A program made the position numbers and the translations under genes. 64,000 nt of DNA from Clostridiaceae bacterium (GTDB lineage Bacteria > Bacillota > Clostridia > Acetivibrionales > DTU013). Shown here in pieces: positions 4,849-22,586 of this stretch. Under the pieces are notes generated by a model. It had not been told where the DNA came from and searched no databases. It saw nothing but the letters and a program-made list of their open reading frames with translations. How positions within the stretch are numbered: the first letter of the stretch is position 1; each line of letters begins with the position of its first letter. The DNA is taken from NCBI GenBank assembly GCA_012519745.1, contig JAAYPO010000081.1:5096-69095 (forward strand), written 5' to 3'.

Positions 4849-5249
4849 AAACAGGAATCTCGGAAAAACGCGAAGGTTGGGTTCTTTCTGCCCATCAGCA
4901 TCTGTTCAAGATGCTTTGATTCATACATCACCTCCGGTTCATTGGTAAGTGATTCACTCGGAGCAAAGTTTTGGGACAGGCTTGCCGGTATACCTCTGCC
5001 CACATAAAAACGGAAAATCTTCAACAGCCCGCTAAGAAAATATCTGATCCCGACCCCTAAAAGCAATATACTGATGATCAGGTTCACCCATCCTGCAGTC
5101 GAACCACTATCTAAAATGCGACTCCGGAGCGTCAGCAGCGATATTGCTCCGATAGCGGAACATACAGCTCCACTGGCCAAGGACAGTAGACCTTCCTTTT
5201 TAAAAGGGTTAGGAATATCGATTGAATCTGAACCGTATTGAAATGACAT
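4812..5249 (-). CDS. Hypothetical membrane protein (possibly the proximal part of the same gene as 3499-4848)
   Basis: 145 aa ORF with two hydrophobic segments. It overlaps the next ORF by 37 nt. The downstream ORF's frame stays open upstream to about 4906. Confidence 0.5.
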   Translation of the reverse strand: MSFQYGSDSIDIPNPFKKEGLLSLASGAVCSAIGAISLLTLRSRILDSGSTAGWVNLIISILLLGVGIRYFLSGLLKIFRFYVGRGIPASLSQNFAPSESLTNEPEVMYESKHLEQMLMGRKNPTFAFFRDSCFCPTRSGTMFMS

Positions 5250-5380: not shown

Positions 5381-6100
5381 GTGCCTTGTTTGCTGCACTT
5401 CTTATTCACCATGCTGAATGAGGTCCTAGGCAGTATCATTTTTCAACTAGGCTATGTCTCGAATTCAAACTCGTTTCCACAGCCGCTTACAGCAGAAGAA
5501 GAGCAAAAATACATCGAAGCATATAAAGAAGGCAGCGAAGATGCCAGAAATACACTTATCGAAAGGAATCTGCGGTTGGTTGCACATATAGTGAAAAAAT
5601 ACAGCAGCTTCAGCAGCGACAGTGATGATCTCATCTCCATAGGTACCATCGGCCTCATCAAAGCCATATCGACCTTCGATCAGTCAAAGGGTACCCGGCT
5701 TGCAACATACGCTGCCCGCTGTATTGAAAATGAAATATTGATGCAGATTAGATCCACAAAAAAGATACAGAGCGAAGTATCTCTCCATGACCCAATTGGC
5801 ATAGACCGTGAGGGCAACGAAATCACACTGATCGACGTTATCGGAAATGAGACCGAATCAGTTATTGATGAAGTTGAACTAAAAATTCAGGTAAAGCGCC
5901 TGTACAATAAAATGAAGGCAGTATTGAAAAAACGTGAGAAAACAGTTTTGGAACTTCGCTACGGCCTTCTTAACGGAACGAGCAAAACTCAGCGTGAGAT
6001 AGCAGGTATGCTCGGCATATCCAGATCATATGTATCACGAATAGAAAAAAAAGCAATAAAAAAGCTCAGCAAGGAGCTTGAGCCGGAAAGCGGCAGATAA
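5381..6100 (+). CDS. sigK: RNA polymerase sporulation sigma factor, pro-sigma-K (uninterrupted)
   Basis: GYVSNSNSFPQPLTAEEEQKYIEAYKEG...ARNTLIERNLRLVAHIVKKY...LISIGTIGLIKAI...ATYAARCIENEILM...SLHDPIG.D.EGNEI.LIDV...TQREIA..LGISRSYVSRIEKKA matches B. subtilis SigK closely, including the pro-sequence. The start is probably the TTG at 5390, 8 nt after GGGAGG. Confidence 0.9.
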   Translation: MPCLLHFLFTMLNEVLGSIIFQLGYVSNSNSFPQPLTAEEEQKYIEAYKEGSEDARNTLIERNLRLVAHIVKKYSSFSSDSDDLISIGTIGLIKAISTFDQSKGTRLATYAARCIENEILMQIRSTKKIQSEVSLHDPIGIDREGNEITLIDVIGNETESVIDEVELKIQVKRLYNKMKAVLKKREKTVLELRYGLLNGTSKTQREIAGMLGISRSYVSRIEKKAIKKLSKELEPESGR

Positions 6101-6218
6101 AACAACAGGGCACGGGGTCATGATCATCTATCGGTCGATGGTTGAATGCCGGGGATCAAATAGTGAGTAGAAACCGCTGAAAAGGTGATAATCATGATTC
6201 CCCCGTCCCCTGGTATTT

Positions 6219-7532
6219 TTACTTGTCTTCTTCGCCTCTGGCGAGCTTTACATGAGAATCGGCCATCTCATAGCCGGCAGCCTGTGCACAGGATGTGTTC
6301 AGATCGAGAGCAGTCACTGCTGCCGCCGCTATCTCTGCCAGTCTCATAACATTTCTGTTATCGTCCACGCTCTTGCCGAAGCCTCCGCAGCCGATCAGCC
6401 TCAGGGCTTCCTTTGAGGTACCGAACATCGTACCTCCTCCAATGGTAGCAAGCTCCATACACGGCAGACTGACCATGAAATGGACACCATCGTCGGTTGC
6501 ATCAGCCTGTATGAAACAGCTTGAAGAGGATATGACATGAGCCAGATCCTGACCGGTAGCCGCATAAAACGCTGCGATAGCATTTGCCGCATTCACATTG
6601 AAGCCTGCGATAGTACCGCTGTAGCACGAGCCCAGATAGCATTTGTGGAAGACTACCTTTTCGACGCTTCTTGGGTTCACGCCTTTTTTAAATACGGCAC
6701 TAAGCACCTCTGTGGGGATAAACACCTCTGTCTCCACAGCTTTGCCGCGTCCCTTCAGAACATTGATGTGAGCCGACTTTTTGTCGGTGTCAAGATTGCT
6801 GCTGATGGTGATCAGCTTCCAGTCCGGCATCATAGAAAGAATATATCTGGTGATGTCTGCAGAAGCCTTTGTCACACCGTTCATTCCCATGGCGTCGCCT
6901 GTCTTGAACGCCATCCTCAGGAACACCTTCGTCCCAAGCTGGTACGGTTCGATATCCTCGAGGCGTACAAAGGGATCCTTTGACAGCTTTCCAAGCTGCT
7001 CGAATAATACCTTGTCGGTTTTGATCCTCTGGCAAAACTCCTGCGCCTTTATTATATCGGGAGCTTCAATCAAAGGCGCTCTGGTCATACCGTCATAGTG
7101 CACCAGTGTCCTCAGCCCTCCTGCCATGTTGATGGCCTTGATGCCCCGCTGCACTCCGGCAACAAGAGCTGCCTCATTTGTTGCCAGCGGTATATATACC
7201 TTCTCGTTGACATACTGGCCGTTGATCTGGATCGGTCCGGCCACTCCAAAGGGGATCGTAGCCGCTCCGATTTTTCCTTCTATCCCGGTCAGCAGTCTTT
7301 CACCGCCGACCAGTGTGGCATTGTCAAGCCTGGTGTTCTTGATCTGTTCAAGGGATACCCCTGTTGCTTCCTCTACAGATTCACAGCGTATCCTGGCGGC
7401 AGCATCACATGCGTCTGCCACCTTTACAGCATCTGAGCCGAATATCTCAGTGAATACGACTGTCTCCAGATGCTGGCTTTTGATTTCACCGGCTATATAT
7501 TTTGATTTGATATCCTTCAATCGATCGTTCAT
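6219..7532 (-). CDS. Hydroxymethylglutaryl-CoA reductase, soluble, class-I-like motifs
   Basis: IPFGVAGPIQINGQ...YIPLATNEAALVAG..RG and TGDAMGMNGV resemble the HMG-CoA reductase catalytic-domain motifs (GVAGP, ATTEG-like, DAMGMN). No membrane domain. Confidence 0.8.
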   Translation of the reverse strand: MNDRLKDIKSKYIAGEIKSQHLETVVFTEIFGSDAVKVADACDAAARIRCESVEEATGVSLEQIKNTRLDNATLVGGERLLTGIEGKIGAATIPFGVAGPIQINGQYVNEKVYIPLATNEAALVAGVQRGIKAINMAGGLRTLVHYDGMTRAPLIEAPDIIKAQEFCQRIKTDKVLFEQLGKLSKDPFVRLEDIEPYQLGTKVFLRMAFKTGDAMGMNGVTKASADITRYILSMMPDWKLITISSNLDTDKKSAHINVLKGRGKAVETEVFIPTEVLSAVFKKGVNPRSVEKVVFHKCYLGSCYSGTIAGFNVNAANAIAAFYAATGQDLAHVISSSSCFIQADATDDGVHFMVSLPCMELATIGGGTMFGTSKEALRLIGCGGFGKSVDDNRNVMRLAEIAAAAVTALDLNTSCAQAAGYEMADSHVKLARGEEDK

Positions 7533-7600
7533 TTTACCGTGCTCCTTCTTTGATTTATAGCGGTTGAAATGCTGCTTCCCTGATCAAGCCGCCGACTGTC

Positions 7601-8488
7601 TCAGCTGCATTTTTGATGGAGAAGAGTACTCAGTGTTTGTGCATAGCCGCCTGCCGCATTGATCTTCTCTTGATCTATGCCCGTATCGATCCCCATTCTG
7701 TGGAACATCTCAACGAGTACCTCTGTCTGACAGTTTCCTTTCGCACCCGGCGCATATGGACATCCTCCCAGACCTCCGGCGGCGCTGTCAAATATGGTTA
7801 TGCCTGCCTCAAGAGATGCCAGATTGTTGGCAAACTCCATGCCGAAGTACTTGTGATAATGAACCGCAAGATCGGCTGTGGTCAGCTTGTCCTTTATCAT
7901 CTTTGGTATCTCATATGCTGTTATTGGATTGGCCATTCCAGTGGTGTCTCCCAGCGAGATCTCATAAGATCCAAAGCTTTCCAGCGCCAGTGCAGTCTCC
8001 AGCGCAAGTTCCGGTGCCATGTGACCCTCTATGGGGCAGCCGAAAACTGTCGCGATATATGAGCGCACCTTTACTCCATGTTCCCTGGCAGTTTTATTGA
8101 TCCTTTCGATTTCCTTGAGAGACTCCTCCCTGCTCATGTTGAGGTTTTTCTTGTTGTGGCTCTCGCTTGTGCTCATTATGGTCACAACTTCCTTCAGCCC
8201 GCATTCTATAGCAAGCTCAAGGCCTCTCATGTTGGGTATCAACGCATTGTAGACAACTCCCTCCCTGCGTCTGATCCCTGCCACTACAGCCTTTGCATCC
8301 GCCATCTGAGGAACCCATTTGGGATGTACGAAGGAGGTCACCTCTATCCTTTGACAGCCTGCGTCAGTGAGCATGTTTACCAGCTCTATCTTCTTTTCCG
8401 TTGGGATAAACTCCGGCTCAGGCTGGAGTCCATCCCTTGGACCAACTTCAAAAATCGAAACTTGTTTTGGAAAAGCAGTTTTATCCAT
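7601..8488 (-). CDS. Hydroxymethylglutaryl-CoA lyase
   Basis: FEVGPRDGLQ...IEVTSFVHPKWVPQMADA...GLGGCPYAPGAKGN are HMG-CoA lyase (HMGL-like) signatures. The likely start is the ATG at 8488, preceded by GAGGGA. Confidence 0.85.
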   Translation of the reverse strand: MDKTAFPKQVSIFEVGPRDGLQPEPEFIPTEKKIELVNMLTDAGCQRIEVTSFVHPKWVPQMADAKAVVAGIRRREGVVYNALIPNMRGLELAIECGLKEVVTIMSTSESHNKKNLNMSREESLKEIERINKTAREHGVKVRSYIATVFGCPIEGHMAPELALETALALESFGSYEISLGDTTGMANPITAYEIPKMIKDKLTTADLAVHYHKYFGMEFANNLASLEAGITIFDSAAGGLGGCPYAPGAKGNCQTEVLVEMFHRMGIDTGIDQEKINAAGGYAQTLSTLLHQKCS

Positions 8489-8564
8489 GATATATCCCTC
8501 ATTTCCTGCCTGCATACTTTGCCTGTATACCTAGCCTGTATACCTGCACATGAATTTGACTTGA

Positions 8565-9599
8565 TTATGGTATAACTATTGCACGTCCGTTGATATTGTT
8601 GAACTCATCCAGCGCTTTCTGGTAGTCCTCCATTGGCACTTCCATCCCGATATATGCGGACGGGTCCACCTTACCGCTGTTGACAAGCCTCATCAGAAGC
8701 TCCCATGTTTTATACATATGCCTTCCGTAGATACCGGTGATCTTTATCTCCCGGTAGACCACGCGATACATATAGCTGCTGATGGCAAGCTCTGCACCGA
8801 CCATCCCCACATGTACAAGGGTTCCGGCAGTTGCCAGAGCATCGATGGCCTGATTTATGACCTTGGTGTTTCCGGTGAAATCGATGACACAATCGACACC
8901 AACACCGTTTGTCAGCTCTTTTGCGGTTTTTACAAGATCATCCTTCATACCGTTCAATGCAATATCTGCTCCGACCTTCAGACTGTATGCCAGCCTGTTT
9001 TCATTCACATCCATTGAAATGACCTTTACCGCTCCCAGGGCTTTTGCCAGCTCACAGGCCATGAGTCCTATGGTGCCCACGCCCAATATCGCTACGATCT
9101 TGCCGCTGGGTTCTGCCTTTTGCAAAGCATGCAGGGCCGTGCCCATAGGTTCCATGAGCGCCATCTGTTTAAAGTCAGCATCGTCCTGAAGCTTTATGGC
9201 CGAGACCTCAGGAAGCCTGATGTATTCAGCGAAGCAGCCATCAACATTCCGTCCCAGCACTCCCATGTTGTTTGTACAGATATGCTGATTGTCGGTCCGG
9301 CATTCATGGCAGTAACCGCATGGAATGTGAGTTTCGCCGGCAACACGATCTCCGGGCTTGAAATTCTTCACCAGCTTGCCCACCGCCTCAACTTCACCGG
9401 AAAACTCATGGCCGAGAGTAAACGGAAGGCTGTAGTTTGTGGATGCCACCAGCGGAGTCCATTCGAATACTTCCATATCGGATTTGCACATGGCTGCGGC
9501 CCTTACTCTTATGAGAAGATCGTGCTCACCTATCTCCGGTATCGGTATATCGACGATTTCCGCTCCTTCTCCTGGTTTTGTTTTTCTCAAAGCTTTCAT
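8565..9599 (-). CDS. Zinc-dependent alcohol/polyol dehydrogenase (MDR family; threonine or sorbitol dehydrogenase-like)
   Basis: GHEFSGEVEAVG, a CGYCHECR structural-zinc Cys cluster, and a GVGTIGL Rossmann motif. Confidence 0.85.
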   Translation of the reverse strand: MKALRKTKPGEGAEIVDIPIPEIGEHDLLIRVRAAAMCKSDMEVFEWTPLVASTNYSLPFTLGHEFSGEVEAVGKLVKNFKPGDRVAGETHIPCGYCHECRTDNQHICTNNMGVLGRNVDGCFAEYIRLPEVSAIKLQDDADFKQMALMEPMGTALHALQKAEPSGKIVAILGVGTIGLMACELAKALGAVKVISMDVNENRLAYSLKVGADIALNGMKDDLVKTAKELTNGVGVDCVIDFTGNTKVINQAIDALATAGTLVHVGMVGAELAISSYMYRVVYREIKITGIYGRHMYKTWELLMRLVNSGKVDPSAYIGMEVPMEDYQKALDEFNNINGRAIVIP

Positions 9600-9671
9600 A
9601 TCAAATTTCTCCCATGAATCAATATTTGCGCGTCGGACCTCTGCCTCCGCAGTATCTGGCAGAATACCCGG

Positions 9672-10376
9672 CTATTTGTTTCTGGTCAGGGTTTCATCCG
9701 GGGCATATCCGAGCTTTTCATAATGTGCGGATCTGGTGACTATATCATCATCCAGCTGCATTTTTGCAAACTTGATCACTTCTTCGGCTCTGTCTCTTGG
9801 GATAACCAGCACACCGTCATCATCCGCACAAATGATGTCGCCGGGATTTACAAGAACACCCGCGCAGTTGACGGGAATATTGGTTCCGCCAAAGGTGCAT
9901 CTGCCATATGAGTGGGTGAATGTTCTCTGTGTGCAGAAAACATTGGCTTTTTCGAGATTCGTCTCATATGAGTCTCTGCAGCCGCCATCCACTACTGCGC
10001 CTTCAATGCCCCTGATCATCAGGTTCATTGCAATTTCAGAGCCCCATACTCCTCCGCGTATCCCTTCCATATCGATGACCACTACCATATCCTTGGCGTT
10101 TTCCTCATTGATGCCGTCCACAAATCTATAAATGTCGCTGCAGCCCTTTCCAAGCTCTTCGCGCCATTCCTCAACAGTCTTGCATACCTTTACGGCGTCC
10201 TGCTTCGGAAGCAGCTTTACTGTGTACGCAAAGCCCTTGAATTCCATACCAGGGCGCAAGGGCCGCATATTAGCGTTCATGGTGCCTTTGTCCACCAGAC
10301 CTATAGCGTCCATAGCGTCGGAAAGATCCGCACATCTGTACTTTCTCAGTTCGTTTATCAGTTCACTGTTTGTCAT
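9672..10376 (-). CDS. RraA family protein / putative 4-hydroxy-4-methyl-2-oxoglutarate-type aldolase
   Basis: The core ...GGVWGSEIAMNLMIRGIEGAVVDGGCRD... is typical of the RraA / HMG-CHA aldolase fold family. Confidence 0.65.
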   Translation of the reverse strand: MTNSELINELRKYRCADLSDAMDAIGLVDKGTMNANMRPLRPGMEFKGFAYTVKLLPKQDAVKVCKTVEEWREELGKGCSDIYRFVDGINEENAKDMVVVIDMEGIRGGVWGSEIAMNLMIRGIEGAVVDGGCRDSYETNLEKANVFCTQRTFTHSYGRCTFGGTNIPVNCAGVLVNPGDIICADDDGVLVIPRDRAEEVIKFAKMQLDDDIVTRSAHYEKLGYAPDETLTRNK

Positions 10377-10414
10377 TTTTTCTACCTTCCTTTTATGTTT
10401 ATATTAGATAATGC

Positions 10415-11293
10415 CTAATACAGGCTTTCTCTTTCCATCAGCTTTCTCATCACTACCGTGATCGTCATTGCCAGTACAAAGATCAGCACCGCCATGACAT
10501 TTCCATATCCTATATTAAAGTTCTGGAATGCATTCACAAACAAATGCAGCGGCAGCAGTTCTGTGGCATGATTGGGTCCGCCTCCGGTCATTACATAAAC
10601 CAGGTCGAAGGATCTCAATGCTCCTACGGTCTGCAGAATAATGACCATCTTGATGATGTCCCACGACAGCGGAATGACCATATGGCGAATCATCTTCCAG
10701 CCTGTAGCACCGTCAAGAGTAGCGCTTTCTATGACTTCACTGGACATGTTCATAAATCCCGAGTTGAACAGGATCACCTGTATTCCGCAGGAATTCCAGG
10801 TCTGGGCGATTATGATCGCTATCAGCGCCAGCTGAGGGCTTGACAAAGGCGGGATATAATGTGCTCCTGCCCCCACGGCATTCATCAGCGGTTTCAGCAG
10901 GCCCATACCCGGACTGTAGATATAGTTCCATATGAATCCTACTGCTACGGATGGAAGCACTGTCGGTATAAAATAAAGTGTCTTGTACAGACGATATCCC
11001 TTAAGCTGCAAATATATCAGGTATCCAAGAAGGAATCCTATCAATACCTGCAGTGTTGTGGTAGATACCATGAATATCAATGTATTGCCAAGTACCTTCC
11101 AGAACATTTGGGAACCCAGCACAGCCCGGTAGTTATTAAAACCTACAAATCTGCTCGATGCCAGCGTGTCCCAGGTATATGTGCTCATCACCACCGACTG
11201 AAGAATCGGATACAGCACCAGATAAGCATAGACCAGAAACCCCGGCACCAGAAACAGCAGTATGGTACCAATATTCTTCTTCGTTACTTTCAT
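10415..11293 (-). CDS. ABC transporter permease (carbohydrate-uptake CUT1 type)
   Basis: Six-TM permease with an EAA-like loop (ESATLDGATGWKMIRHMVIPL). Confidence 0.85.
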   Translation of the reverse strand: MKVTKKNIGTILLFLVPGFLVYAYLVLYPILQSVVMSTYTWDTLASSRFVGFNNYRAVLGSQMFWKVLGNTLIFMVSTTTLQVLIGFLLGYLIYLQLKGYRLYKTLYFIPTVLPSVAVGFIWNYIYSPGMGLLKPLMNAVGAGAHYIPPLSSPQLALIAIIIAQTWNSCGIQVILFNSGFMNMSSEVIESATLDGATGWKMIRHMVIPLSWDIIKMVIILQTVGALRSFDLVYVMTGGGPNHATELLPLHLFVNAFQNFNIGYGNVMAVLIFVLAMTITVVMRKLMERESLY

Positions 11294-11326
11294 TTCAAGT
11301 CTCTCCCCTTACCGCCAGGTAAAATT

Positions 11327-12220
11327 CTATCCCTTGATCGCGCCTGCGATCATACCTTTTTCTATTTTCTCCTGTGCCAGAATATAAAACACTATGCTTG
11401 GGATAATGGCCATCATTATTCCGGCGGCCAGCTGCGTATACTCGGAATTGTACTCGGTAATAAAGCCCATCAACCCAATAGGAAGGGTCTTCAATGCAGG
11501 CTTGCTAAGCAGCAGCATGGATACAAGCAATTCATTCCAGCTGGCAAGAACAGCAAGTATGGATATTGTTACGATCCCGTCCTTGGTCAGCGGTACAATT
11601 ATTTTAAAGAACAGCCTGAAGACAGAGCAGCCATCAATAAATGCACACTCTTCCAGTTCCCTCGGCAATGACGTCATGAACCCTTCGAGTATAAATATTG
11701 AGATGGGTATCCTGAATGCTGCATAGATCAGGCTCAGTACTCCAAGATTATTGTACTGGTTCCATTTGCCCACCATCATGTACAAAGGAATTATTGCCGA
11801 ATGTATAGGTATCATCATACCTGCGATAGCTATAAAGTATAAAAGCTTTTTCCCCTTGAAGTTGAATCTGGATAAAACAAACGCGATGGGTGTTACAGTC
11901 ACAACTGTGATTACTATGGTCAATCCGGTCACTATCACACTGTTGAGCATATATTTATCGATCTTTGAGCCTTTCCATGCTTTCAGGTAGTTGGAAAACA
12001 TCCACTGCTTGGGAGGGCCCCATGTGTTCATAGTCAGGTCAGCCTGTGACTTCAGGGAAGAAAACAGGAGCCAGATCAAAGGCAGCGCTACGATCAGTGC
12101 AAATACCGTCAACACGATATATATCCATACAAGGGTCTTTTTCTTTTCGACTGCAAGCTGCGGACTTGGCATTACCAGCTCATCCGTGCCGCTCACAGCT
12201 TTTTTAGTTTGATTGCCCAT
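11327..12220 (-). CDS. ABC transporter permease (CUT1 type)
   Basis: EAA-like loop ECAFIDGCSVFRLFFKIIVPL. The likely start is MGNQTKK at 12220 with an AAGGTGA RBS. The track ORF extends to 12298. Confidence 0.85.
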   Translation of the reverse strand: MGNQTKKAVSGTDELVMPSPQLAVEKKKTLVWIYIVLTVFALIVALPLIWLLFSSLKSQADLTMNTWGPPKQWMFSNYLKAWKGSKIDKYMLNSVIVTGLTIVITVVTVTPIAFVLSRFNFKGKKLLYFIAIAGMMIPIHSAIIPLYMMVGKWNQYNNLGVLSLIYAAFRIPISIFILEGFMTSLPRELEECAFIDGCSVFRLFFKIIVPLTKDGIVTISILAVLASWNELLVSMLLLSKPALKTLPIGLMGFITEYNSEYTQLAAGIMMAIIPSIVFYILAQEKIEKGMIAGAIKG

Positions 12221-12316
12221 TCGCTTCACCTTTACTATTTTGGTTTTACAGCCATGGCATACCGGCAAGGCCGGTATGCCATGACCGTATTGTGTCAATT
12301 GATACTTACAGTATGC

Positions 12317-13723
12317 TTATTTCTGTGCCTTGACGTAGTCCTCTGCCGCTTTCTGAACTTCTGCGACAGCCTTCTGGACATCGAACTCACCTGTGATCAG
12401 GCCGGGCATTGCAGTCTGCTTGATAGCAAGGTCAACAGCCGGAGGTGCTATGGTATCCATTGAAGGAATATATGCATCAGCTGTACGGTATGCTTCGATC
12501 AACTGGTTCATAACATCAGAGACATTAGCTTTGTTGTAGTCCACCTGTCCTGCATATACAAATCCGCCTGCTTCCATGATCGGCACGTTGAAATCCGGGC
12601 TGCAGATATTCATTGCCAGCTTGATAGCTGTGTCCTTCTTTGTCTCATCAAGTCCATTCTTTACAAATATGCCTATAACGTTGCCGCCCACTCTTACCTT
12701 AGGATCGCCGTCAGGTCTGTCAGTCATGGCCGGGAAGTCAACACGGGCGATCTTGGCAAGGAATTCAGGTCCTCCTGCCGTAGCAAAGTTGCCGGGCTTC
12801 CATGCGCCTTCGTAGTACATGGCAGCTTCGCCTCTTGCAAACATTTGGTCAGCTTCCGATGCGCTTATTCCAAGTACTCCCTTTGGATAACCGCCGGCAT
12901 CAACAAACGCCTTGAATTTTTCCATGGCTGCTACGAAGCCGTAAGCCGGATCATTCCAGCTGGTCTGCTTGTCGCCGAGGGTAAGAGCCTTGAAGTTGTC
13001 AAGACCTGCGGATCTTGAAAGAAGAGCTGATGCAAGCCATGCAAATCTTCCATCCTTGCCGCCGGTCACGAGTGTTGCTATGCCTTCTTTGTTGGTCTGG
13101 GGAACCAGTGCCAGCAGCTCGTCAAAGGTTTCAGGCACCTTCCAGCCATATTTCTGGAACAGCTCCTTGTTGTAGAAAAGGCCGTCTATGGAGCCTTCCT
13201 GGGGCGCCAGCATTATTTTGCCGTCCTCTGTCGATGCAAAATTGAGTGATGTTTCCGTAAACCACTGTTTGAATTCCGGATATCTCGGATCTTCAAATAC
13301 AGGCTTCCAGTCGATTATCATGTCGTCCTTTATGAACTCTCTGGCATAGCTGAGGGGGCACCATGATACATCCGGAGGATTGCCTGCAGCCATTTCGACT
13401 GTCAGCTTGGTCCTTGCGTCTGCTGTCGGCAGAGCGTCATGAATTATTGTTATGTTCGGGCTCTCTGCCTTGTACTTGGCCATCAGAGCTTCGATCTGGT
13501 CATATGCTGCAGCTCCTGCCGTCCAGGGTGTCAAAAGCCTCAGTTCGATTTTCTCGGTGGTTGCAGGAGTTTGATCTGTAGGAGTCTGACCCGGTGTTGT
13601 CGTTCCTCCCGGTGTGTCGTTTGCCGGCGGGGTATCCTGACGTCCGCATCCGAATACCAGCGCAGATGTCATAACAAGCAGTAAAACCAGGGAAATTACC
13701 TTGAAAAAACGTGATCTTTTCAT
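12317..13723 (-). CDS. ABC transporter extracellular solute-binding lipoprotein
   Basis: Signal peptide plus lipobox (LVFGC), a Thr/Pro-rich linker and a family-1 SBP-like body. Confidence 0.85.
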   Translation of the reverse strand: MKRSRFFKVISLVLLLVMTSALVFGCGRQDTPPANDTPGGTTTPGQTPTDQTPATTEKIELRLLTPWTAGAAAYDQIEALMAKYKAESPNITIIHDALPTADARTKLTVEMAAGNPPDVSWCPLSYAREFIKDDMIIDWKPVFEDPRYPEFKQWFTETSLNFASTEDGKIMLAPQEGSIDGLFYNKELFQKYGWKVPETFDELLALVPQTNKEGIATLVTGGKDGRFAWLASALLSRSAGLDNFKALTLGDKQTSWNDPAYGFVAAMEKFKAFVDAGGYPKGVLGISASEADQMFARGEAAMYYEGAWKPGNFATAGGPEFLAKIARVDFPAMTDRPDGDPKVRVGGNVIGIFVKNGLDETKKDTAIKLAMNICSPDFNVPIMEAGGFVYAGQVDYNKANVSDVMNQLIEAYRTADAYIPSMDTIAPPAVDLAIKQTAMPGLITGEFDVQKAVAEVQKAAEDYVKAQK

Positions 13724-13770
13724 TTTCTACCTCCTAATTTTTATTTAATCCTGATGGATCAAATACACGA

Positions 13771-14208
13771 TCATTTTTCAGTTAAAGTTGCGATATTATC
13801 GTCATCCTTTACTCTGTGCAGGTTTATACCTTTTAATTCAAGCAAAGTTATTTCTGACAGGTATAATACCGTGGTACCATTTTCCAAATGCCCCGTATAA
13901 GTATTTTCCAGATCGGAAATCACCATGTGGAAGTGAGGTTTGCCGTCAACTACAACGCCCTGCAGCGATGCAAGCTCTATCGGCTTTTCAATAGTAAGGA
14001 ATTCATCCACAGGCTCTCTTTCCATACCTGTCACCCGATGGAAAACAGCCTTTTGCAGCGAGCCTATGGCGCTTGTTATGATTGCGTTTTTTATGCCCGC
14101 CTCACTTAAACCTTTTTCGATACTTTCGAGCAGCAAATCACCCCTTTTGAGATTCATAATCAAAACCCTGCCTGTGCCTTCACCAAGGAAACTTACCATT
14201 TGCCTCAT
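13771..14208 (-). CDS. PPC/DUF296 domain protein
   Basis: A 145 aa beta-rich protein (..LIMNLKRGDLLLESIEKGL...SAIGSLQKAVF...GKPHFHMVISD) that resembles the PPC (DUF296) fold family. Confidence 0.5.
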   Translation of the reverse strand: MRQMVSFLGEGTGRVLIMNLKRGDLLLESIEKGLSEAGIKNAIITSAIGSLQKAVFHRVTGMEREPVDEFLTIEKPIELASLQGVVVDGKPHFHMVISDLENTYTGHLENGTTVLYLSEITLLELKGINLHRVKDDDNIATLTEK

Positions 14209-14385
14209 CCTTTCTCTGTCTGCATGGGTATTATGCAGACATCGACCTTATATAATAATTTTAGAAAAAAAACAGAGTACTTAAAATCAACTCTGTTCAG
14301 ATTTCGTTAATTATTTTAATCAGTTTTAAGGAAAATACTCTCCGAAGAAAATCAATATAACTATTTTAATTTTTATAGTAAAATC

Positions 14386-16029
14386 TTAAACTGAAAGATT
14401 CTGTTGATATTCAGTGGGGGTACATCCTGCTATCTTTTTGAAAACCTTGCTGAAATAGCAGGCATTATCGTACCCCAGCATGTAGGATATCTCATAGATC
14501 TTGTGGGAACCCTGCCTGATCAGTTCCTGTGCCTTCTCGACCTTCACCTGGTTCACATACTCTGTAAAATTCATTCCAGTATATTTGGGAAACAGACCGC
14601 TTAAATACCCTGCGCTTATATTGAGGTGATCGGCTACATTTTTCAGATTCACCGGGCCGACACAGTTTTCAAAGATAAATTTTTTGGCCCTGGTGATCAG
14701 TACATGCTTCTCATCCTTATTCTGATCGCTCAATACACGAATAATCCGACTGCGCAGTTCATCAAGCCAGTCCGATATCTCCGCCAGTGTTCTCAGGGAC
14801 CCGACATGCTCAAGTTCGTTATAATCCTCTCCGCCCTTGCCGTTCTTCTTCCTTATGTCTACCAGATGTATGCCGCAAAGCAGCACCAGCTGGCTGCACA
14901 ATTCATATACCCTGCCTTTACTGATCCTTTTGTCGTTTATATCGCTGCGCATCCTGGCAAACAGATTGTTAATGCCTGAAGTGTCCCCATGGGAAACAAG
15001 TCTTGGCAGTTCTTCCTTAAGATCAAAGCTGAAAGCCTCTGTATCCTCATATGACAGGCTTTCATGTCCGCTGTAGTACAAAATGCTTCCGTACCCGCTG
15101 TAAAACATGTCCTCCAGAGCTGTCTCGGCCTGCCTGAATGCCTGGGGCAGATTCTTATAGCCCTTGCATACCCCGCTTATGCCCACTGCCACTTCCAGAT
15201 TCACATACTTCTTTATCATCTCGATAATCGTATCGAACATGGGCTCCATTCGCTGCTTCATAGCTGCATCGTCGGTATCTGCGCCTTCCCCTTCCTCGGG
15301 TGAAAACACGATGACATATTTGCCAAAGGACCACTTGATGATGTGACTTGTAAAAAATTCATTCCCTATATCGGCTATCAAATCGGTCAATGTGTGATCT
15401 ATGAGCTTTATATCCTGTTCCTGGCTGTATTTTTCCCTTAAGGTGTACAGATTTGTCTCAAGTATGCCCAGACGAAGCATGTTCTCGTTGAGCCCGAAGT
15501 CCATCAAGGGCAGCTTGTCTTCTATATTGACCCGGTCCTCAAGAACATTTTCTATTATACTTTTTAAAAATACCTGCCTTATGGCAGAGAGGCTCCAGTA
15601 ATCATAGCTTACCCTTTTTACCTCGGGTTTTTTCTCATCGCCCGAAAGGATCACTTCCCTGACTTTTTCCAGCACCTCCTGCAGTGACTCGCTGCTTATG
15701 TTGAGCTTTAGTATATAGTCCCACGCGCCAAGCTTCATAGCCTTTCTTACCAGCTTAAATTCATTGTAGCTGCTCAGGACTATCACCTGGAGGTTTGGGT
15801 TATGCTCTTTTGCAAGGCGCATCATTTCTATCCCGTCCATTTTGGGCATCACGATATCCGTAATGACCAGTTGGGGATCGTGCTGCTTTATCAATGACAG
15901 TCCATTCTCACCATTGCTTCCCTCGGCTACGATCTCAAAGCCCAGCGATTTCCAGTCGACAAGTGACTTGATGCCTACCTTCACCAACGTTTCATCATCA
16001 ACCAACACAACCCTTACCAAATACAACAC
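14386..16029 (-). CDS. Two-component response regulator, REC + AraC-type HTH (YesN-like)
   Basis: REC domain (VLVDDE...DLVITDIVMPKMDG) and a C-terminal AraC HTH (..YLSGLFPKYTGMNFTEYVNQVKVEKAQELI..). Confidence 0.9.
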   Translation of the reverse strand: MLYLVRVVLVDDETLVKVGIKSLVDWKSLGFEIVAEGSNGENGLSLIKQHDPQLVITDIVMPKMDGIEMMRLAKEHNPNLQVIVLSSYNEFKLVRKAMKLGAWDYILKLNISSESLQEVLEKVREVILSGDEKKPEVKRVSYDYWSLSAIRQVFLKSIIENVLEDRVNIEDKLPLMDFGLNENMLRLGILETNLYTLREKYSQEQDIKLIDHTLTDLIADIGNEFFTSHIIKWSFGKYVIVFSPEEGEGADTDDAAMKQRMEPMFDTIIEMIKKYVNLEVAVGISGVCKGYKNLPQAFRQAETALEDMFYSGYGSILYYSGHESLSYEDTEAFSFDLKEELPRLVSHGDTSGINNLFARMRSDINDKRISKGRVYELCSQLVLLCGIHLVDIRKKNGKGGEDYNELEHVGSLRTLAEISDWLDELRSRIIRVLSDQNKDEKHVLITRAKKFIFENCVGPVNLKNVADHLNISAGYLSGLFPKYTGMNFTEYVNQVKVEKAQELIRQGSHKIYEISYMLGYDNACYFSKVFKKIAGCTPTEYQQNLSV

Positions 16030-16045
16030 CTCCCCGCCCGAAGCA

Positions 16046-17818
16046 TCAGAGCTCTTTATGGATCAGCACCTTTACTGATGTATACTCATTGTATCTGCTC
16101 TCGACAGATATTCCGTATTCCTGGCCGTATATCAATTTGATTCTTTCATTTATATTTTTAAGTCCGACCCTGTTGTACTTGTTGCTTTCACTGTCAGTGG
16201 CATCCAGTATGCTGCCAAGGCGTCCCTCCGGTATCCCCGCACCGTTATCCCTGACCTCTATCACGATATCTTCACCGGCAGACATGACTGACACCTCTAT
16301 CATGCCCATGCCGCGCTTGCCTTCAAAACCATGGACGATGGCATTTTCAGCGATCGGCTGCAATGTGAATCTTGGGATGCGGTATTCCTCAAGCCCCTCC
16401 TCCACAGTATAGCTGACCTGGATCATGCCCTTTTTTCTCACCTTCTGGATATCGATATACTTATCCAGAAGATACAGCTCCTCTTTTATAGTGATCCTGT
16501 CGGCCTTGCCTTTGGAGGTTTCCTTTAAAAGGACACCCAGTGCTGTGGCCGTTTCACTGATCCCTTCAGCCTTCTGGAGCATGGCCATGACCTTGATGGA
16601 GTTGAGCACATTATATATGAAATGCGGGTTGATCTGATTCTGCAATACTTTGAATTCCAGCTCGCTCTTTGCTTTTTCCTCGTCCTTTATCCTGTTCATA
16701 AGTAGCTCCACATTCGATGACAGTTTATTCATTCCCTTGCCCAGTATCCCCATCTCATCGTTCCCCTCCAGAGCGGGATCAGGTCTGAAATCGCCTCCGG
16801 ATATCCTGTCCATATGCGCCAGCAGCCTCCTTATAGGCTTTGTTATGTTAGTAGACAGGAAAGCGCTGCACAAGATACTCACCGTCAGTGAAATAAATAT
16901 GATCACAAAAGCCATTTTAGCTGCTGCGCCTTTTTGTGACTCTATTTGCCTGTAATCCACCAGCTGAACTATCCTCAGGCCGGAATAATCAGATTTTTCA
17001 TGGACTGCAAGGACCTTTTTATCCTTGAAATAGCCTACGGTCTCGCCTGCGTCACCCTTTATCAGCTCAAAAAGGCCCTGTTCCTGCATATTTTTCGCTA
17101 AATACTGCCCCTGGCTGCTATAGACGCACCTTCCCTTTTCATCGAGGAGAAAAATAACATCTCCCTCTGTCAGATCGAAGCTCTTCAGGCTGTCCCCAAT
17201 GACATCCGGTGAAAACGCCAGCATCTGCCAGCCGATCTTTTTTCTGCTGTCGGAAAAAATAATGGAGCGTGCAATGGGAAGAAAATAGTCGGATGCCCTC
17301 ATCCTTGACAGGTTGTCCTCAATGCCGTTAAAAACAGCCACTATCTCGTCCTTCCCCTGGATAAACCAATCCTTCTGATACATTTCAGCGTAATCCAGAT
17401 AATCGGTCTCTATGCCGAAGGTCAGCTGCACTCCATTATTGCCCCTTATCACCAGCGAGGTCACATAGCCGCCGATGGACGAGCTTGTTATCCTGTCTTC
17501 GATGACTTTCAGCGCTGTAGAAATATCAAGGTTATAGTTATGTGTCTCATTCCTATAGTCCCTGACCAGGACCTTGTCAATGTTCCTGTTTATGAATATC
17601 CAATCAGAAAGAGCGCTGCATTGAGCAAGCTGCTTATCCACATTGCTGAGCAGATATCTGATATTGCTTTGTGTGTTTTCCACAGCCCGTTCTTCCAGCT
17701 TGCTCTTTGTATAGTTGTAATAATAGGCGATTATGAAAAATGATACTAATGCCAGGATTATGGAAAACCCCACAATTATCTTGTCCTTCAGTGTGTTTAG
17801 GCTAATAATTCTCTTCAT
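16046..17818 (-). CDS. Sensor histidine kinase (YesM-like: TM, sensor, HAMP, His_kinase, HATPase)
   Basis: QINPHFIYNVLNSI (His_kinase family H-box) and NAIVHG...DNGAGI...GLKNINERI ATPase motifs. The likely start is MKRIISLN at 17818. Confidence 0.9.
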   Translation of the reverse strand: MKRIISLNTLKDKIIVGFSIILALVSFFIIAYYYNYTKSKLEERAVENTQSNIRYLLSNVDKQLAQCSALSDWIFINRNIDKVLVRDYRNETHNYNLDISTALKVIEDRITSSSIGGYVTSLVIRGNNGVQLTFGIETDYLDYAEMYQKDWFIQGKDEIVAVFNGIEDNLSRMRASDYFLPIARSIIFSDSRKKIGWQMLAFSPDVIGDSLKSFDLTEGDVIFLLDEKGRCVYSSQGQYLAKNMQEQGLFELIKGDAGETVGYFKDKKVLAVHEKSDYSGLRIVQLVDYRQIESQKGAAAKMAFVIIFISLTVSILCSAFLSTNITKPIRRLLAHMDRISGGDFRPDPALEGNDEMGILGKGMNKLSSNVELLMNRIKDEEKAKSELEFKVLQNQINPHFIYNVLNSIKVMAMLQKAEGISETATALGVLLKETSKGKADRITIKEELYLLDKYIDIQKVRKKGMIQVSYTVEEGLEEYRIPRFTLQPIAENAIVHGFEGKRGMGMIEVSVMSAGEDIVIEVRDNGAGIPEGRLGSILDATDSESNKYNRVGLKNINERIKLIYGQEYGISVESRYNEYTSVKVLIHKEL

Positions 17819-18044
17819 ATTGTATGTTCCTTGTAGATATGGCCCAATATGGTACAATTTACACAAACTAGTTTACATAAAGTTTAAATCATGCTTCAAT
17901 TATATTGTTTTCCGGTCAAACTGTCAATTTAGCATATAGTCTGCTAACGACAGGTCTATTGATATATATGTATTATGTTGACTTCCTATTCTCTCTAATA
18001 TAAAATAAAATTGATAAAAAAAGAGATACATACATATATTATTA

Positions 18045-18123
18045 CCGCTTGCCATTGCCATTTACCATTTACACTTACCATGTGCCATTTGCCATGTGTC
18101 ATTCACCATGTGCCATTTGCCTT
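18045..18123. repeat. Imperfect heptanucleotide array (RCCATKT, about 10 units) in a divergent promoter region
   Basis: gccatt gccattt accattt acactt accatgt gccattt gccatgt gtcattc accatgt gccattt. An 18-nt block, accatgtgccatttgcc, is repeated 28 bp apart. Confidence 0.8.
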
Positions 18124-18164
18124 TCTTTGATTATGCAATCAAATTCAATCAGGAGGAAAAACCG

Positions 18165-19076
18165 ATGACGGAATCCATAAAAAAATATTTTAAGGTCGGA
18201 ACTATCCATTTTATGTCATATCCACAAACAATGAAGGGAGAAGGCCCCATAGCAGAGACTCTTATGAAGATCCTTTGCGACGACTATTTTGATGCCGTTG
18301 AGCTGACCTGGATCAAAAGCGACGAGGTAAGGAGTCAGGTGAAAAACATGCTGGACGAGTCCGGCATAACTGTTTGCTACGGAGCACAGCCAAGGCTCCT
18401 CACCACGGGATTGAACCCGAATGCCGCCGAGGAGGCAGACCGGGCAAAGGCTGAGGCAACTCTCATGGAAGCGCTGGATGAGGCTGAATACCTGGGCGCA
18501 AAGGGAATCGCCTTCCTGGCTGGCAAATATGATGAAGAGAAAAAGGAGCATCACTACAACCAGCTTCTGAAAACAACGAAAAACCTGTGCAAATATGCCG
18601 CCACAAAAGGAATGAATGTTGAAATAGAGGTTTTTGACTATGATGTGGACAAAAAATCACTGATAGGCCCTGCTCCTCTTGCAGCCAGATTTGCAGCCGA
18701 GATACGTGAATGCCATAACAATTTCGGTCTGCTGATAGATCTGTCCCATATCCCCCAGACCCACGAGACCAGCCGATTTGTGATCCAGACACTGAAGCCT
18801 TACATCACACACCTCCATTTCGGCAGCGCCGTTTTGGGAGATCCGTCCATGGAAGCATTTGGAGACACACATCCCCGGTTCAACTTTGCCAATTCGGTCA
18901 ATTCAGTGAATGACCTGGCCAACTTCCTGCAATGTCTGAAGGATGAGAATATGTTCTACCGGAAGGACCCCATGGTGCTTTCTTTCGAAGTAAAGCCGTG
19001 GAAGGATGAAAACCCCGAGCTTGTGCTGGCCAACACAAAGCGCGTTCTCAACCGTGCATGGGCGCTTGTGGACTAA
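18165..19076 (+). CDS. Sugar phosphate isomerase/epimerase family (xylose-isomerase-like TIM barrel) protein
   Basis: AGGAGG RBS 7 nt upstream of the ATG at 18165. The length, the pattern (..LIDLSHIP..) and the context fit. The family assignment is tentative. Confidence 0.6.
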   Translation: MTESIKKYFKVGTIHFMSYPQTMKGEGPIAETLMKILCDDYFDAVELTWIKSDEVRSQVKNMLDESGITVCYGAQPRLLTTGLNPNAAEEADRAKAEATLMEALDEAEYLGAKGIAFLAGKYDEEKKEHHYNQLLKTTKNLCKYAATKGMNVEIEVFDYDVDKKSLIGPAPLAARFAAEIRECHNNFGLLIDLSHIPQTHETSRFVIQTLKPYITHLHFGSAVLGDPSMEAFGDTHPRFNFANSVNSVNDLANFLQCLKDENMFYRKDPMVLSFEVKPWKDENPELVLANTKRVLNRAWALVD

Positions 19077-19126
19077 ATGAAGAAATCGAGAAGCAATAAC
19101 GTATTAAGAAAGCGGAGGAATCTTGA

Positions 19127-20086
19127 ATGAAGATAGTAATTTTAGACGGATATACTGAAAATCCCGGCGATCTCAGCTGGGAAGGCTTTGAGTCTCTCGG
19201 CGAGCTTGTGGTCTATGACCGCACAAAGCAGGAGGATATTATTCCGAGAATAGGAAATGCTGAAATAGTGATAACTAATAAAACCCCCCTGGACAAAAAA
19301 GTATTTGAAGCCTGTCCATCAATAAAATATGTCGGTGTCCTGGCTACCGGCTATAATGTAGTTGATATTGAAGCTGCAAAGGAAAGAAACATACCGGTCT
19401 CCAACATCCCCACATACGGTACTGCAGCTGTTGCTCAATACACATTCGCTTTGCTGCTGGAGATATGTCACCATGTAGGAAAGCATAATGATGCCGTCAA
19501 ATCAGGGAAATGGACTTCCTGTCCCGATTTCTGCTTCTGGGATTATCCACTTATCGAGCTGGCAGGAAAAACCTTTGGGTGTATCGGTTACGGAAGGATT
19601 GGCCAGAACGCCGGAAAACTGGCCCAGTGCTTTGGTATGAAGGTAATTGCCTATGACGAGTACCAAAACAAGGAGCTTGAGAACGAGAACATGCGGTATG
19701 TCGATCTCGACACACTTCTTGCAGAGTCAGATGTGATTTCACTGCACTGCCCTCTTCTGCCGTCAACAAATGGCATCATCAACAAGGATACCATTGCAAA
19801 AATGAAAGATGGCGTGATAATCATAAACACATCCAGAGGCCCGCTGATAGTGGAAGAGGACCTCAAAAAGGGACTTGTCGATGGCAAAATATATTATGCG
19901 GCCGTGGATGTGGTATCGTCAGAGCCCATCTCGGAAGACAACCCGCTGCTGACAGCGCCTAACTGCATCATCACACCTCACATCGCATGGGCGCCGAAGG
20001 AGAGCCGCAAACGGCTGCTGGACATAGCAGTCAGCAACCTGGAAGCCTATCTGTCCGGCAAGCCTGTCAATGTTGTCAACGGCTGA
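19127..20086 (+). CDS. D-isomer-specific 2-hydroxyacid dehydrogenase (glycerate/hydroxypyruvate reductase-like)
   Basis: GCIGYGRIGQ NAD-binding motif. INTSRG...D and TPHIAW catalytic motifs. Confidence 0.88.
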   Translation: MKIVILDGYTENPGDLSWEGFESLGELVVYDRTKQEDIIPRIGNAEIVITNKTPLDKKVFEACPSIKYVGVLATGYNVVDIEAAKERNIPVSNIPTYGTAAVAQYTFALLLEICHHVGKHNDAVKSGKWTSCPDFCFWDYPLIELAGKTFGCIGYGRIGQNAGKLAQCFGMKVIAYDEYQNKELENENMRYVDLDTLLAESDVISLHCPLLPSTNGIINKDTIAKMKDGVIIINTSRGPLIVEEDLKKGLVDGKIYYAAVDVVSSEPISEDNPLLTAPNCIITPHIAWAPKESRKRLLDIAVSNLEAYLSGKPVNVVNG

Positions 20087-22247: not shown

Positions 22248-22586
22248 CTATAATTCAACTCCTTCTGCGCTAAGAACAGGCAGCGTGAAAATAACAGCAG
22301 AATCGGGCTTTGACAGGTCTCCAACCACTTCGCGTATGATCTTCTTTGCTTCCTCCGTTTTCTCTTCTCTTAGTGCCATAAATAATGTTTTGCTCTCTTT
22401 GCGGTCAGGGTCGATAAGCATCCGCAATGTACCGAAAAACGGAAGATCCTCATTGCTTTTTGTCAGTTCGCGAACCATCCCTGTACTGTTCAATATTGTT
22501 GCTCCGCAAATACCCTGCTCCATCAGCCTTTCAAGCAGAGTGTCGAGAACCTCGACTTTGTTCAATACCATAACTAACAACTGCAT
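22248..22586 (-). CDS. Small P-II-like protein coupled to the antiporter gene
   Basis: 112 aa with a beta-alpha-beta N-terminus (MQLLVMVLNKVEVLDTLLERLMEQGICGATIL). A 3-nt gap separates it from the antiporter gene. The family call is tentative. Confidence 0.45.
   Translation of the reverse strand: MQLLVMVLNKVEVLDTLLERLMEQGICGATILNSTGMVRELTKSNEDLPFFGTLRMLIDPDRKESKTLFMALREEKTEEAKKIIREVVGDLSKPDSAVIFTLPVLSAEGVEL

Follow-up and report, generated by a model that had tools for sequence, protein, structure and literature searches.

A class-I-derived HMG-CoA reductase homologue paired with an HMG-CoA lyase homologue in a candidate sugar-acid catabolic locus of anaerobic bacteria

The reductases of HMG-CoA (the CoA thioester of 3-hydroxy-3-methylglutarate), which are among the best-studied enzymes, act on HMG-CoA and mevalonate. 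The closest described system to the locus considered here is the mvaA/mvaB pair of Pseudomonas mevalonii, in which an NAD-dependent reductase oxidises mevalonate to HMG-CoA, which is then cut by a lyase. The present analysis concerns a stretch of 64,000 nucleotides from a Clostridiaceae bacterium (assembly GCA_012519745.1, contig JAAYPO010000081.1), termed the window, in which genes for an HMG-CoA-lyase-like and an HMG-CoA-reductase-like enzyme stand at the end of a series of genes for ATP-binding cassette (ABC) uptake and two-component control. The pair belongs to a real and widespread catabolic unit that is apparently undescribed, in that a literature search returned no account of such a reductase/lyase pair in a sugar context, nor of the route proposed below. 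On balance, the locus is likely to serve catabolism, with a hydroxy acid derived from a sugar being cleaved oxidatively in a CoA-dependent manner.

As in P. mevalonii, the reductase and lyase genes are adjacent, have a catabolic role, are not needed for isoprenoid synthesis and likely involve NAD; the proposed chemistry, i.e. conversion of a primary alcohol into a CoA thioester that is then cut, would also be shared. By contrast with mvaA, which is a class II enzyme, the window reductase is class-I-derived; the gene order is lyase then reductase, the active site pockets appear altered, and the pair lies amid sugar, glycoside and sugar-acid genes rather than in a stand-alone mevalonate operon.

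A second point of comparison is the catabolism of apiose, a branched pentose. Of the four known apiose/apionate routes, one proceeds via transketolase and three are oxidative, with no CoA-dependent route being mentioned (PMC13753588). The D-apiose routes of Carter et al. 2018 are summarised in PMC13753588 and PMC13001218, and the genes of the transketolase route are apsI, aplK and aptAB (PMC13001218). Loci related to that of the window resemble these systems in their plant branched-pentose context, many of them having a GH140-like gene and a split transketolase, and in having a PF01261 TIM barrel, i.e. a member of the family of ApsI; a C5 substrate would also suit a C2 plus C3 outcome. The split transketolases in some loci are 35-43% identical to AptA/B, with none being present in the window. 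Unlike in the transketolase route, the identity between the TIM barrel and ApsI is only 23% and an AplK-type FGGY kinase is present in none of the related loci. The source genome has a separate, Escherichia coli-like transketolase cluster on contig C116 (C116:5548-13558, locus L085), comprising a split transketolase, a short-chain dehydrogenase/reductase (SDR), a Peripla_BP_4 binding protein, an ABC ATPase, a permease and an FGGY kinase; its transketolase subunits, SDR and binding protein are 31-41% identical to those of the E. coli ST131 apiose cluster, and the best AplK-like kinase of the genome (38%) is on contig C136, not C116. Thus, with no ApsI orthologue, no AplK-like kinase and no class II reductase, the locus lies outside the known apiose routes and the class II mvaAB system.

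The lower pathways of glyoxylate and glucarate catabolism in E. coli (Hyi, GlxR/GarR, GlxK/GarK) provide a third comparison, because in 14 of the related loci a PF01261 isomerase-type gene, a reductase gene and a PF02595 glycerate kinase gene stand in a row after those of the core. The similarity does not extend to the individual enzymes: Hyi is not orthologous to the isomerase, a D-2-hydroxyacid dehydrogenase takes the part of the reductase rather than GlxR, and the C3 acid would come from a CoA-dependent cut rather than from glyoxylate carboligase or GarL.

Ancestry and conserved residues of the reductase and lyase

The reductase is of class I ancestry. The original prediction had described it as class-I-like from its GVAGP and DAMGMN motifs, both of which are present in the alignment, and the profile scores agree, with 287 bits for TIGR00533 (class I), which is below the equivalog cut-off of 442, and 32 bits against a cut-off of 260 for TIGR00532 (class II, NAD-dependent degradative). 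Its top solved relatives are the archaeal 6HR7 and the plant and human class I enzymes, and a tree of 59 sequences, made by a quick method, places it within class I. A homologue search returned a close family, with 66-95% identity, in Clostridia, spirochaetes and planctomycetes; the next relatives in an exhaustive search of representatives drop to 44-46% identity, with outgroups at this level being biosynthetic, one within a complete mevalonate operon and another archaeal. In the tree this tight clade (60-95% identity) forms a single branch (SH-aLRT 100, stem length 1.23) arising from within the class I enzymes of archaeal type.

The residues of 21 family members were compared by column with those of 138 class I representatives (human residue numbers being anchored on conserved motifs). 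The residues E120, K251, D329 and H427, which correspond to the catalytic residues E559, K691, D767 and H866 of the human enzyme, are invariant in 21/21 family members. The equivalents of human R568, R590, S684, D690, K692, K735 and N755, which we take to include the residues holding the HMG carboxylate in human structures, are likewise invariant. In these respects, as in its fold, the reductase is similar to archaeal-type class I reductases, such as 6HR7 and the mevalonate-operon enzyme P0244. By contrast, human S626/R627, at the NADPH 2'-phosphate site, are replaced by Asp186-Pro187 in 21/21 family members, whereas the first of these positions is Ser or Thr in 129/138 of the class I representatives and the second is Arg in 97/138. 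The replacement of Ser-Arg by Asp-Pro at this site suggests the use of NAD as cofactor, and the enzyme probably works in the oxidative direction. Further invariant, family-specific changes that distinguish the long-stem clade from the archaeal-type enzymes (EC 1.1.1.34), as does the lack of a mevalonate pathway, are of G685 to Ser245, N736 to Cys298 and, for two leucines assigned to the pocket, L853 to Thr413 and L857 to Gln417. From the combination of retained catalytic residues and changed residues it can be inferred that thioester redox chemistry is intact and that the substrate bears a carboxylate and is bound in a more polar pocket.

The lyase is ~50% identical to the HMG-CoA lyases of Bacillus subtilis (1YDO) and humans (2CW6), and the catalytic Arg, metal ligands and loop Cys (R27, D28, H219, H221, C252) are invariant in 50 locus-linked lyases. 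Its pocket looks to have been retooled too: compared with a reference set of two enzymes only, those from B. subtilis and humans, family-specific positions lie beside the catalytic residues (T192, K/R222, E227, F228), such that GDT-T replaces GDT-I, the Asp that follows His-x-His is exchanged for Lys, Arg or Gln, and Glu and Phe take the places of an Ala and a Leu, respectively.

The genomic setting of the pair is non-biosynthetic. In the source genome (3.07 Mb, 99.99% complete, with the window on contig C12) the window reductase is the sole match to PF00368, and genes of the methylerythritol phosphate (MEP) pathway are present (Dxr 494 bits, IspH 305 bits). HMG-CoA synthase and mevalonate kinase, which the original prediction had remarked on as missing locally, are lacking from the whole genome too, where the best matches are of 21 and 37 bits, respectively, far below the cut-offs. 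Of five further carriers, i.e. Ruminiclostridium cellobioparum, Mahella, two spirochaetes and one Christensenellaceae genome, Dxr is present in four and a mevalonate kinase over the cut-off in none. Because the organism uses the MEP pathway, has a single reductase and lacks mevalonate-pathway genes, a biosynthetic role is ruled out and the pair is catabolic. The name given to these reductase genes in public records, 'hydroxymethylglutaryl-CoA reductase (NADPH)', is thus misleading because it implies a mevalonate pathway in organisms that use the MEP pathway.

Gene order and conservation of the locus

All twelve genes listed in the original prediction were found where it had placed them, using the list of open reading frames (ORFs) together with Pfam and NCBIfam profile scans of the window. 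The features, in window coordinates, are as follows.

16046-17866, minus strand: sensor histidine kinase, YesM-like (Pfam HAMP, His_kinase PF06580 and HATPase_c)
14386-16029, minus strand: response regulator with AraC-type helix-turn-helix, YesN-like (Pfam)
13771-14208, minus strand: PCC/PPC (DUF296) protein, a conserved member of the system (PF03479, 67 bits)
12317-13723, minus strand: CUT1-type solute-binding lipoprotein (SBP_bac_1/SBP_bac_8; lipobox at the N-terminus)
11327-12298, minus strand: ABC permease, MalG/UgpE-like (PF00528, BPD_transp_1; NCBIfam)
10415-11293, minus strand: ABC permease, MalF/UgpA-like (PF00528, BPD_transp_1; NCBIfam)
9672-10376, minus strand: RraA-like protein of the class II aldolase/beta-keto-acid decarboxylase family (PF03737, 100 bits)
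8565-9599, minus strand: Zn-dependent medium-chain dehydrogenase (ADH_N/ADH_zinc_N)
7601-8515, minus strand: HMG-CoA-lyase-like acyl-CoA lyase (HMGL-like; NF004283, 368 bits against a cut-off of 246)
6219-7532, minus strand: class-I-derived HMG-CoA-reductase-like oxidoreductase (PF00368, 295 bits)
6079-6062, minus strand: terminator-like hairpin and T-run 3' of the reductase gene (pattern match only)
18096-19076, plus strand, divergent: PF01261 xylose-isomerase-like TIM barrel (PF01261, 63 bits)
19127-20086, plus strand, divergent: D-2-hydroxyacid dehydrogenase (PF02826/PF00389)

The intergenic gaps from the PCC gene to the reductase gene are of 18-72 bp, and a pattern scan of the minus strand detected no terminator-like site between these genes; the kinase and response-regulator genes are separated by 16 bp, and the scan gave a perfect (12/12) sigma-70 -35/-10 match at 17927-17899, upstream of the kinase gene. 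The lipoprotein, two permeases, PF06580 kinase and AraC-type regulator together make up a CUT1 importer with YesM/YesN-type control; no ABC ATPase gene is present at the locus, to which the search for one was confined. The closest solved relatives of the binding lipoprotein, 4G68 and 7EHP, are oligosaccharide binders, and a histidine kinase accompanies the system in 11 related loci.

The conservation of this arrangement was surveyed using one genome per species, giving 72 loci, with clustering of all ORFs and family scans of representatives. The lyase gene is directly upstream of the reductase gene, on the same strand, in 65 of the 66 loci with sequence there, and the pairing is kept whatever transporter accompanies it. 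The loci come from Bacillota, Spirochaetota, Planctomycetota and others; hence the arrangement is not peculiar to one Firmicute, the module being widespread, albeit patchily, with several phyla and at least 72 species-level genomes represented. Carriers of the reductase family number 21 among 149 genomes of the taxonomic order to which the source organism belongs, and two of 12 in its genus. Recurring around the core are an alcohol dehydrogenase (ADH) or SDR, the PCC protein, the RraA-like protein, the PF01261 TIM barrel, the 2-hydroxyacid dehydrogenase and glycerate kinase, as well as cytoplasmic GH140-like or GH2 glycosidases and a split transketolase; genes for acetoacetate utilisation (CoA-transferase, thiolase) do not recur in the loci. 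The proposed functional tie between the reductase/lyase pair and the uptake locus is thereby upheld.

Two main layouts are found in Firmicutes. The window type has the kinase, response regulator, PCC protein, solute-binding protein, two permeases, RraA-like protein, Zn-ADH, lyase, reductase, TIM barrel, 2-hydroxyacid dehydrogenase and glycerate kinase. The second has two permeases, a GFO/IDH/MocA oxidoreductase, another PF01261 barrel, a different solute-binding protein, the PCC protein, a cytoplasmic GH2 protein, Zn-ADH, lyase, reductase, 2-hydroxyacid dehydrogenase and glycerate kinase. Spirochaete loci often consist of a GntR regulator, lyase, reductase and SDR alone. Three loci have carboxylate importers instead of ABC systems, i.e. 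a tripartite ATP-independent periplasmic (TRAP) transporter, DctPQM, whose genes immediately precede those of the enzymes in L063 and L079, and a tripartite tricarboxylate transporter (TTT), TctABC, beside them in L078; these importers support an acid as the substrate. The TRAP binding protein of L079 is closest (176 bits) to the solved 4PC9/4PCD, a protein which, like its nearest solved relatives, is reported to have been crystallised with aldonic acids.

Some of the recurring proteins have informative relatives. The RraA-like gene is present in 19 related loci, always alongside the window-type transporter, and the top solved relative of its product is 3NOJ, a CHA aldolase/oxaloacetate decarboxylase. 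The Zn-ADH, present in 39 loci and substituted in others by a second Zn-ADH type or an SDR, is nearest to L-threonine 3-dehydrogenase (310 bits on the Tdh models, below the cut-off of 380, and 223 bits against solved Tdh proteins). The PCC protein is present in 26 related loci, of both architectures; its solved relatives are only the hypothetical proteins 2H6L and 2DT4, and a literature search on PCC/DUF296 proteins turned up only other families and the plant AHL proteins.

The TIM barrel and 2-hydroxyacid dehydrogenase genes are paired in 23 loci, the latter gene being present in 24, and in 14 loci the dehydrogenase gene is followed by one for glycerate kinase (TIGR00045, 429 bits). The dehydrogenase, which matches the PRK06487 (316 bits) and glyoxylate reductase (208 bits) profiles, is proposed to be a hydroxypyruvate/glyoxylate reductase, and the TIM barrel to be an isomerase of the tartronate-semialdehyde/hydroxypyruvate type. 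The latter gives just weak matches to the IolO and OtnI models; no solved structure with sequence similarity to it was found, and an ESM Atlas search yielded a family name only. Three loci of, or near to, the second type (L016, L076, L077) have a tartronate-semialdehyde-reductase-like (GarR-like) gene, and in two of these, L016 and L076, no 2-hydroxyacid dehydrogenase gene is within reach.

A link to plant glycosides is provided by GH140-like genes (DUF5060 and PF13204), which are present in nine loci, often directly before the gene for a window-type binding protein. The GH140-like and GH2 proteins are without a signal peptide and the binding proteins are lipoproteins, from which it follows that an imported glycoside may be cut inside the cell. 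A divergent GH140-like subtype (~586 residues, ~100 bits; L093 and the related loci L008, L016, L032, L033, L039, L048, L052, L058 and L075), usually encoded 5-15 kb from the reductase gene, is present in 16/21 carriers of the reductase family and in 0/128 non-carriers of the same taxonomic order, which is an association rather than a statistical test because relatives are not independent; the 128 non-carriers have other PF13204 types or none. In an extended, Ruminiclostridium-type locus (L093), genes for an AMP-binding enzyme, a cupin, a GH140-like protein (7832-9592) and a split transketolase precede the window-type genes.

A possible CoA-dependent route and its alternatives

From the comparisons of sequence and gene context we infer a scheme for the chemistry, direction, cofactor and substrate of the pathway. 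The locus would import a plant-derived sugar or small glycoside, with the YesM/YesN-type system controlling the operon, and the RraA-like protein, Zn-ADH and PCC protein would prepare an acid from the imported compound. The reductase, with NAD+ and CoA, would convert the terminal CH2OH group (or aldehyde) of a polyhydroxylated, carboxylate-bearing mevalonate analogue into an acyl-CoA, which the lyase-like enzyme would cut in a retro-Claisen/aldol manner. Mevalonate is formally a 2,4-dideoxy-3-C-methyl-pentonate, a pentonate having the same backbone from C1-carboxylate to C5-alcohol. Most parsimoniously, a C5 sugar acid would be split into C2 and C3 pieces, the latter having the oxidation level of glycerate; from a linear pentonate, glycolyl-CoA and tartronate semialdehyde would result, and from D-apionate, glyoxylate and glyceroyl-CoA. 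The C3 piece would then be converted to phosphoglycerate by the TIM barrel, the 2-hydroxyacid dehydrogenase and a glycerate kinase encoded elsewhere in the genome. The interchangeable ADH, SDR and GFO enzymes may be sugar 1-dehydrogenases or keto-acid reductases, RraA may be an aldolase or a beta-keto-acid decarboxylase, and the transketolase donor may be hydroxypyruvate or a ketose.

The candidate substrates are apionate, a pentonate, aceric acid and mevalonate. Assignment of the substrate as a C5 acid specifically is tentative, and an apiose-derived acid in particular is doubtful. It may be, though we regard this as somewhat improbable, that the locus represents a new and widespread anaerobic pathway, in which a class I reductase, through recruitment, now acts as a CoA-acylating oxidase of sugar acids that depends on NAD, and the lyase homologue cuts the C-C bond. 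A C5 plant sugar would thus be degraded in a CoA-dependent manner that conserves energy, and D-apiose/D-apionate might have in it a fifth route, based on a thioester, with a new cytoplasmic GH140-like glycosidase supplying the substrate.

Several observations weigh against oxidative cleavage of a sugar acid as proposed. The lyase, at ~50% identity to true HMG-CoA lyases, passes the NCBI cut-off and the reductase keeps its carboxylate anchors, because of which HMG-CoA and mevalonate stay among the possible substrates. The T558N, S565G and H752N changes, considered at first as signs of a new substrate, were withdrawn as not diagnostic because they are common to the biosynthetic nearest relatives. 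The TIM barrel was rejected both as an ApsI orthologue (the 23% identity to the Pectobacterium enzyme being over 207 residues, with E = 0.006) and, with its weak profile matches and no solved relative, as a Hyi orthologue. In the window, the TIM barrel and dehydrogenase genes are divergent from the operon, and the glycerate kinase of the source genome is on another contig, C136. The value of GH140 as proof of apiose is weakened, the locus-linked proteins being of the divergent subtype, at ~100 bits; the source genome and a congener are without a GH140-like gene, the former also being without the cupin. No single scheme accounts for the RraA-like protein, Zn-ADH, PCC protein, cupin and transketolase; an alternative starting from Kdo, in which an RraA-type aldolase would give D-arabinose and then D-arabinonate, uses most of the enzymes and was set aside as being without direct support.

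The original prediction is partly supported overall. Its catabolic reading of the pair stands, and neither a mevalonate pathway with this reductase as its only copy, nor a lyase/reductase unit transcribed separately from a system for an ordinary sugar, the two situations that it had set against that reading, was found. Mevalonate itself, the substrate suggested by the P. mevalonii precedent, fares less well. True catabolism of mevalonate or mevalonolactone would proceed via HMG-CoA, yielding acetoacetate together with acetyl-CoA, with the ADH or SDR forming 3-hydroxybutyrate as an electron sink; such a pathway would account for the pairing of reductase and lyase by the logic of mvaAB, for the score of the lyase over the NF004283 cut-off, for the retained carboxylate-binding residues, for the similarity of the Zn-ADH to threonine 3-dehydrogenase, whose substrate resembles 3-hydroxybutyrate, and for the TRAP and TTT importers, which suit a small acid. 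It is nonetheless improbable, given the family-invariant polar replacements in the pockets of both enzymes and the sugar and sugar-acid nature of the partners, which are glycosidases, oligosaccharide-type binders, the 2-hydroxyacid dehydrogenase, glycerate kinase and transketolase. Moreover, no acetoacetate CoA-transferase or thiolase recurs in the loci, and the reductase is far under the equivalog cut-offs of both classes.

The case for aceric acid (3-C-carboxy-5-deoxy-L-xylose), a component of rhamnogalacturonan II, is similarly slender. Its C1 aldehyde would be converted to a CoA thioester, with a cut of the citramalyl-CoA-lyase type then giving glycolyl-CoA and 3-hydroxy-2-oxobutanoate; the HMGL family does include an (R)-citramalyl-CoA lyase. 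By established chemistry the compound has a branched six-carbon skeleton identical to that of HMG and mevalonate; it bears a carboxylate, and its CH3-CHOH end would suit a threonine-dehydrogenase-like ADH. The presence of a GH140-like gene in many loci is consistent with this substrate, the GH140 family being, to our knowledge, known only from rhamnogalacturonan II breakdown, but the GH140-like proteins reach only ~100 bits on the family model and no GH127-type (aceric-acid-releasing) or rhamnosidase genes were seen in the loci. Further, the products would bypass glycerate, so leaving the conserved glycerate kinase unexplained.

Operation in the reverse direction, in which the lyase would join an acyl-CoA to a keto compound and the thioester would be reduced to an alcohol by the reductase, as an electron sink or for synthesis of a branched polyol or acid, is very unlikely. 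Class I reductases are normally reductive, fermenting anaerobes require electron sinks, and the lyase gene precedes that of the reductase; against this, the replacement of the NADPH 2'-phosphate site by Asp-Pro is as is typically seen in catabolic enzymes linked to NAD, importers, glycosidases and a sensor system are central to the locus, and the equilibrium of such lyases generally favours cleavage. Least probable of all is a chance neighbourhood, in which an ordinary sugar is handled by the transporter and regulators, with the genes for the lyase and reductase being an unrelated unit that is transcribed separately, since, although the pair stands with a GntR regulator only in some spirochaete loci and transporter types vary among loci, the short gaps without a terminator from the PCC gene to the reductase gene, the occurrence of the same enzyme set with the pair across phyla and three transporter classes, and the confinement of a dedicated GH140-like subtype to genomes carrying the reductase family all oppose it.

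If CoA-dependent cleavage of a sugar acid is correct, the reaction scope of the HMG-CoA reductase family would be widened to a sugar acid, with recruitment having occurred from biosynthesis to catabolism. The carriers are plant-fibre degraders of guts, digesters and sediments, including Ruminiclostridium, Caldicoprobacter, Mahella, Christensenellaceae, termite-gut treponemes and planctomycetes, and the module may explain what becomes of a sugar from pectin under anaerobic conditions. Among them, R. cellobioparum DSM 1351 is cultured and has the full locus.

Other genes at the related loci and in the window

In the TRAP-linked L079 locus, a gene of the isocitrate/tartrate-dehydrogenase family lies beside the core pair (12654-13757), and the TRAP-linked L063 locus has URO-D-like and 2-keto-3-deoxygalactonate-kinase-like genes (5708-6787 and 9996-11000); this suggests that the TRAP-linked lineages have different feeder or exit steps. 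At L093:3074-5102, genes for a large serine recombinase and a small sigma-70 region-4/helix-turn-helix protein flank the Ruminiclostridium-type locus, and in the window a sigma-70-type gene (5381-6100) adjoins the reductase gene. Taken with the patchy distribution, these flanking recombinase and sigma-type genes hint that the locus has spread horizontally.

Elsewhere in the window, three minus-strand ORFs (3499-4848, 4812-5249 and 22248-22586; 449, 145 and 112 residues, respectively) gave no match in Pfam under the thresholds applied. The one part of the window with a low GC content (~38% compared with ~47%) contains a gene for a C-A-T-R single-module nonribosomal peptide synthetase with a terminal reductase (33931-38322, minus strand; 1463 residues), beside which a histidine kinase is encoded, as is a response regulator with DUF3369/HD-GYP-type domains (31898-33925 and 30393-31901). 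This region may be a horizontally acquired locus for a small peptide aldehyde or alcohol.

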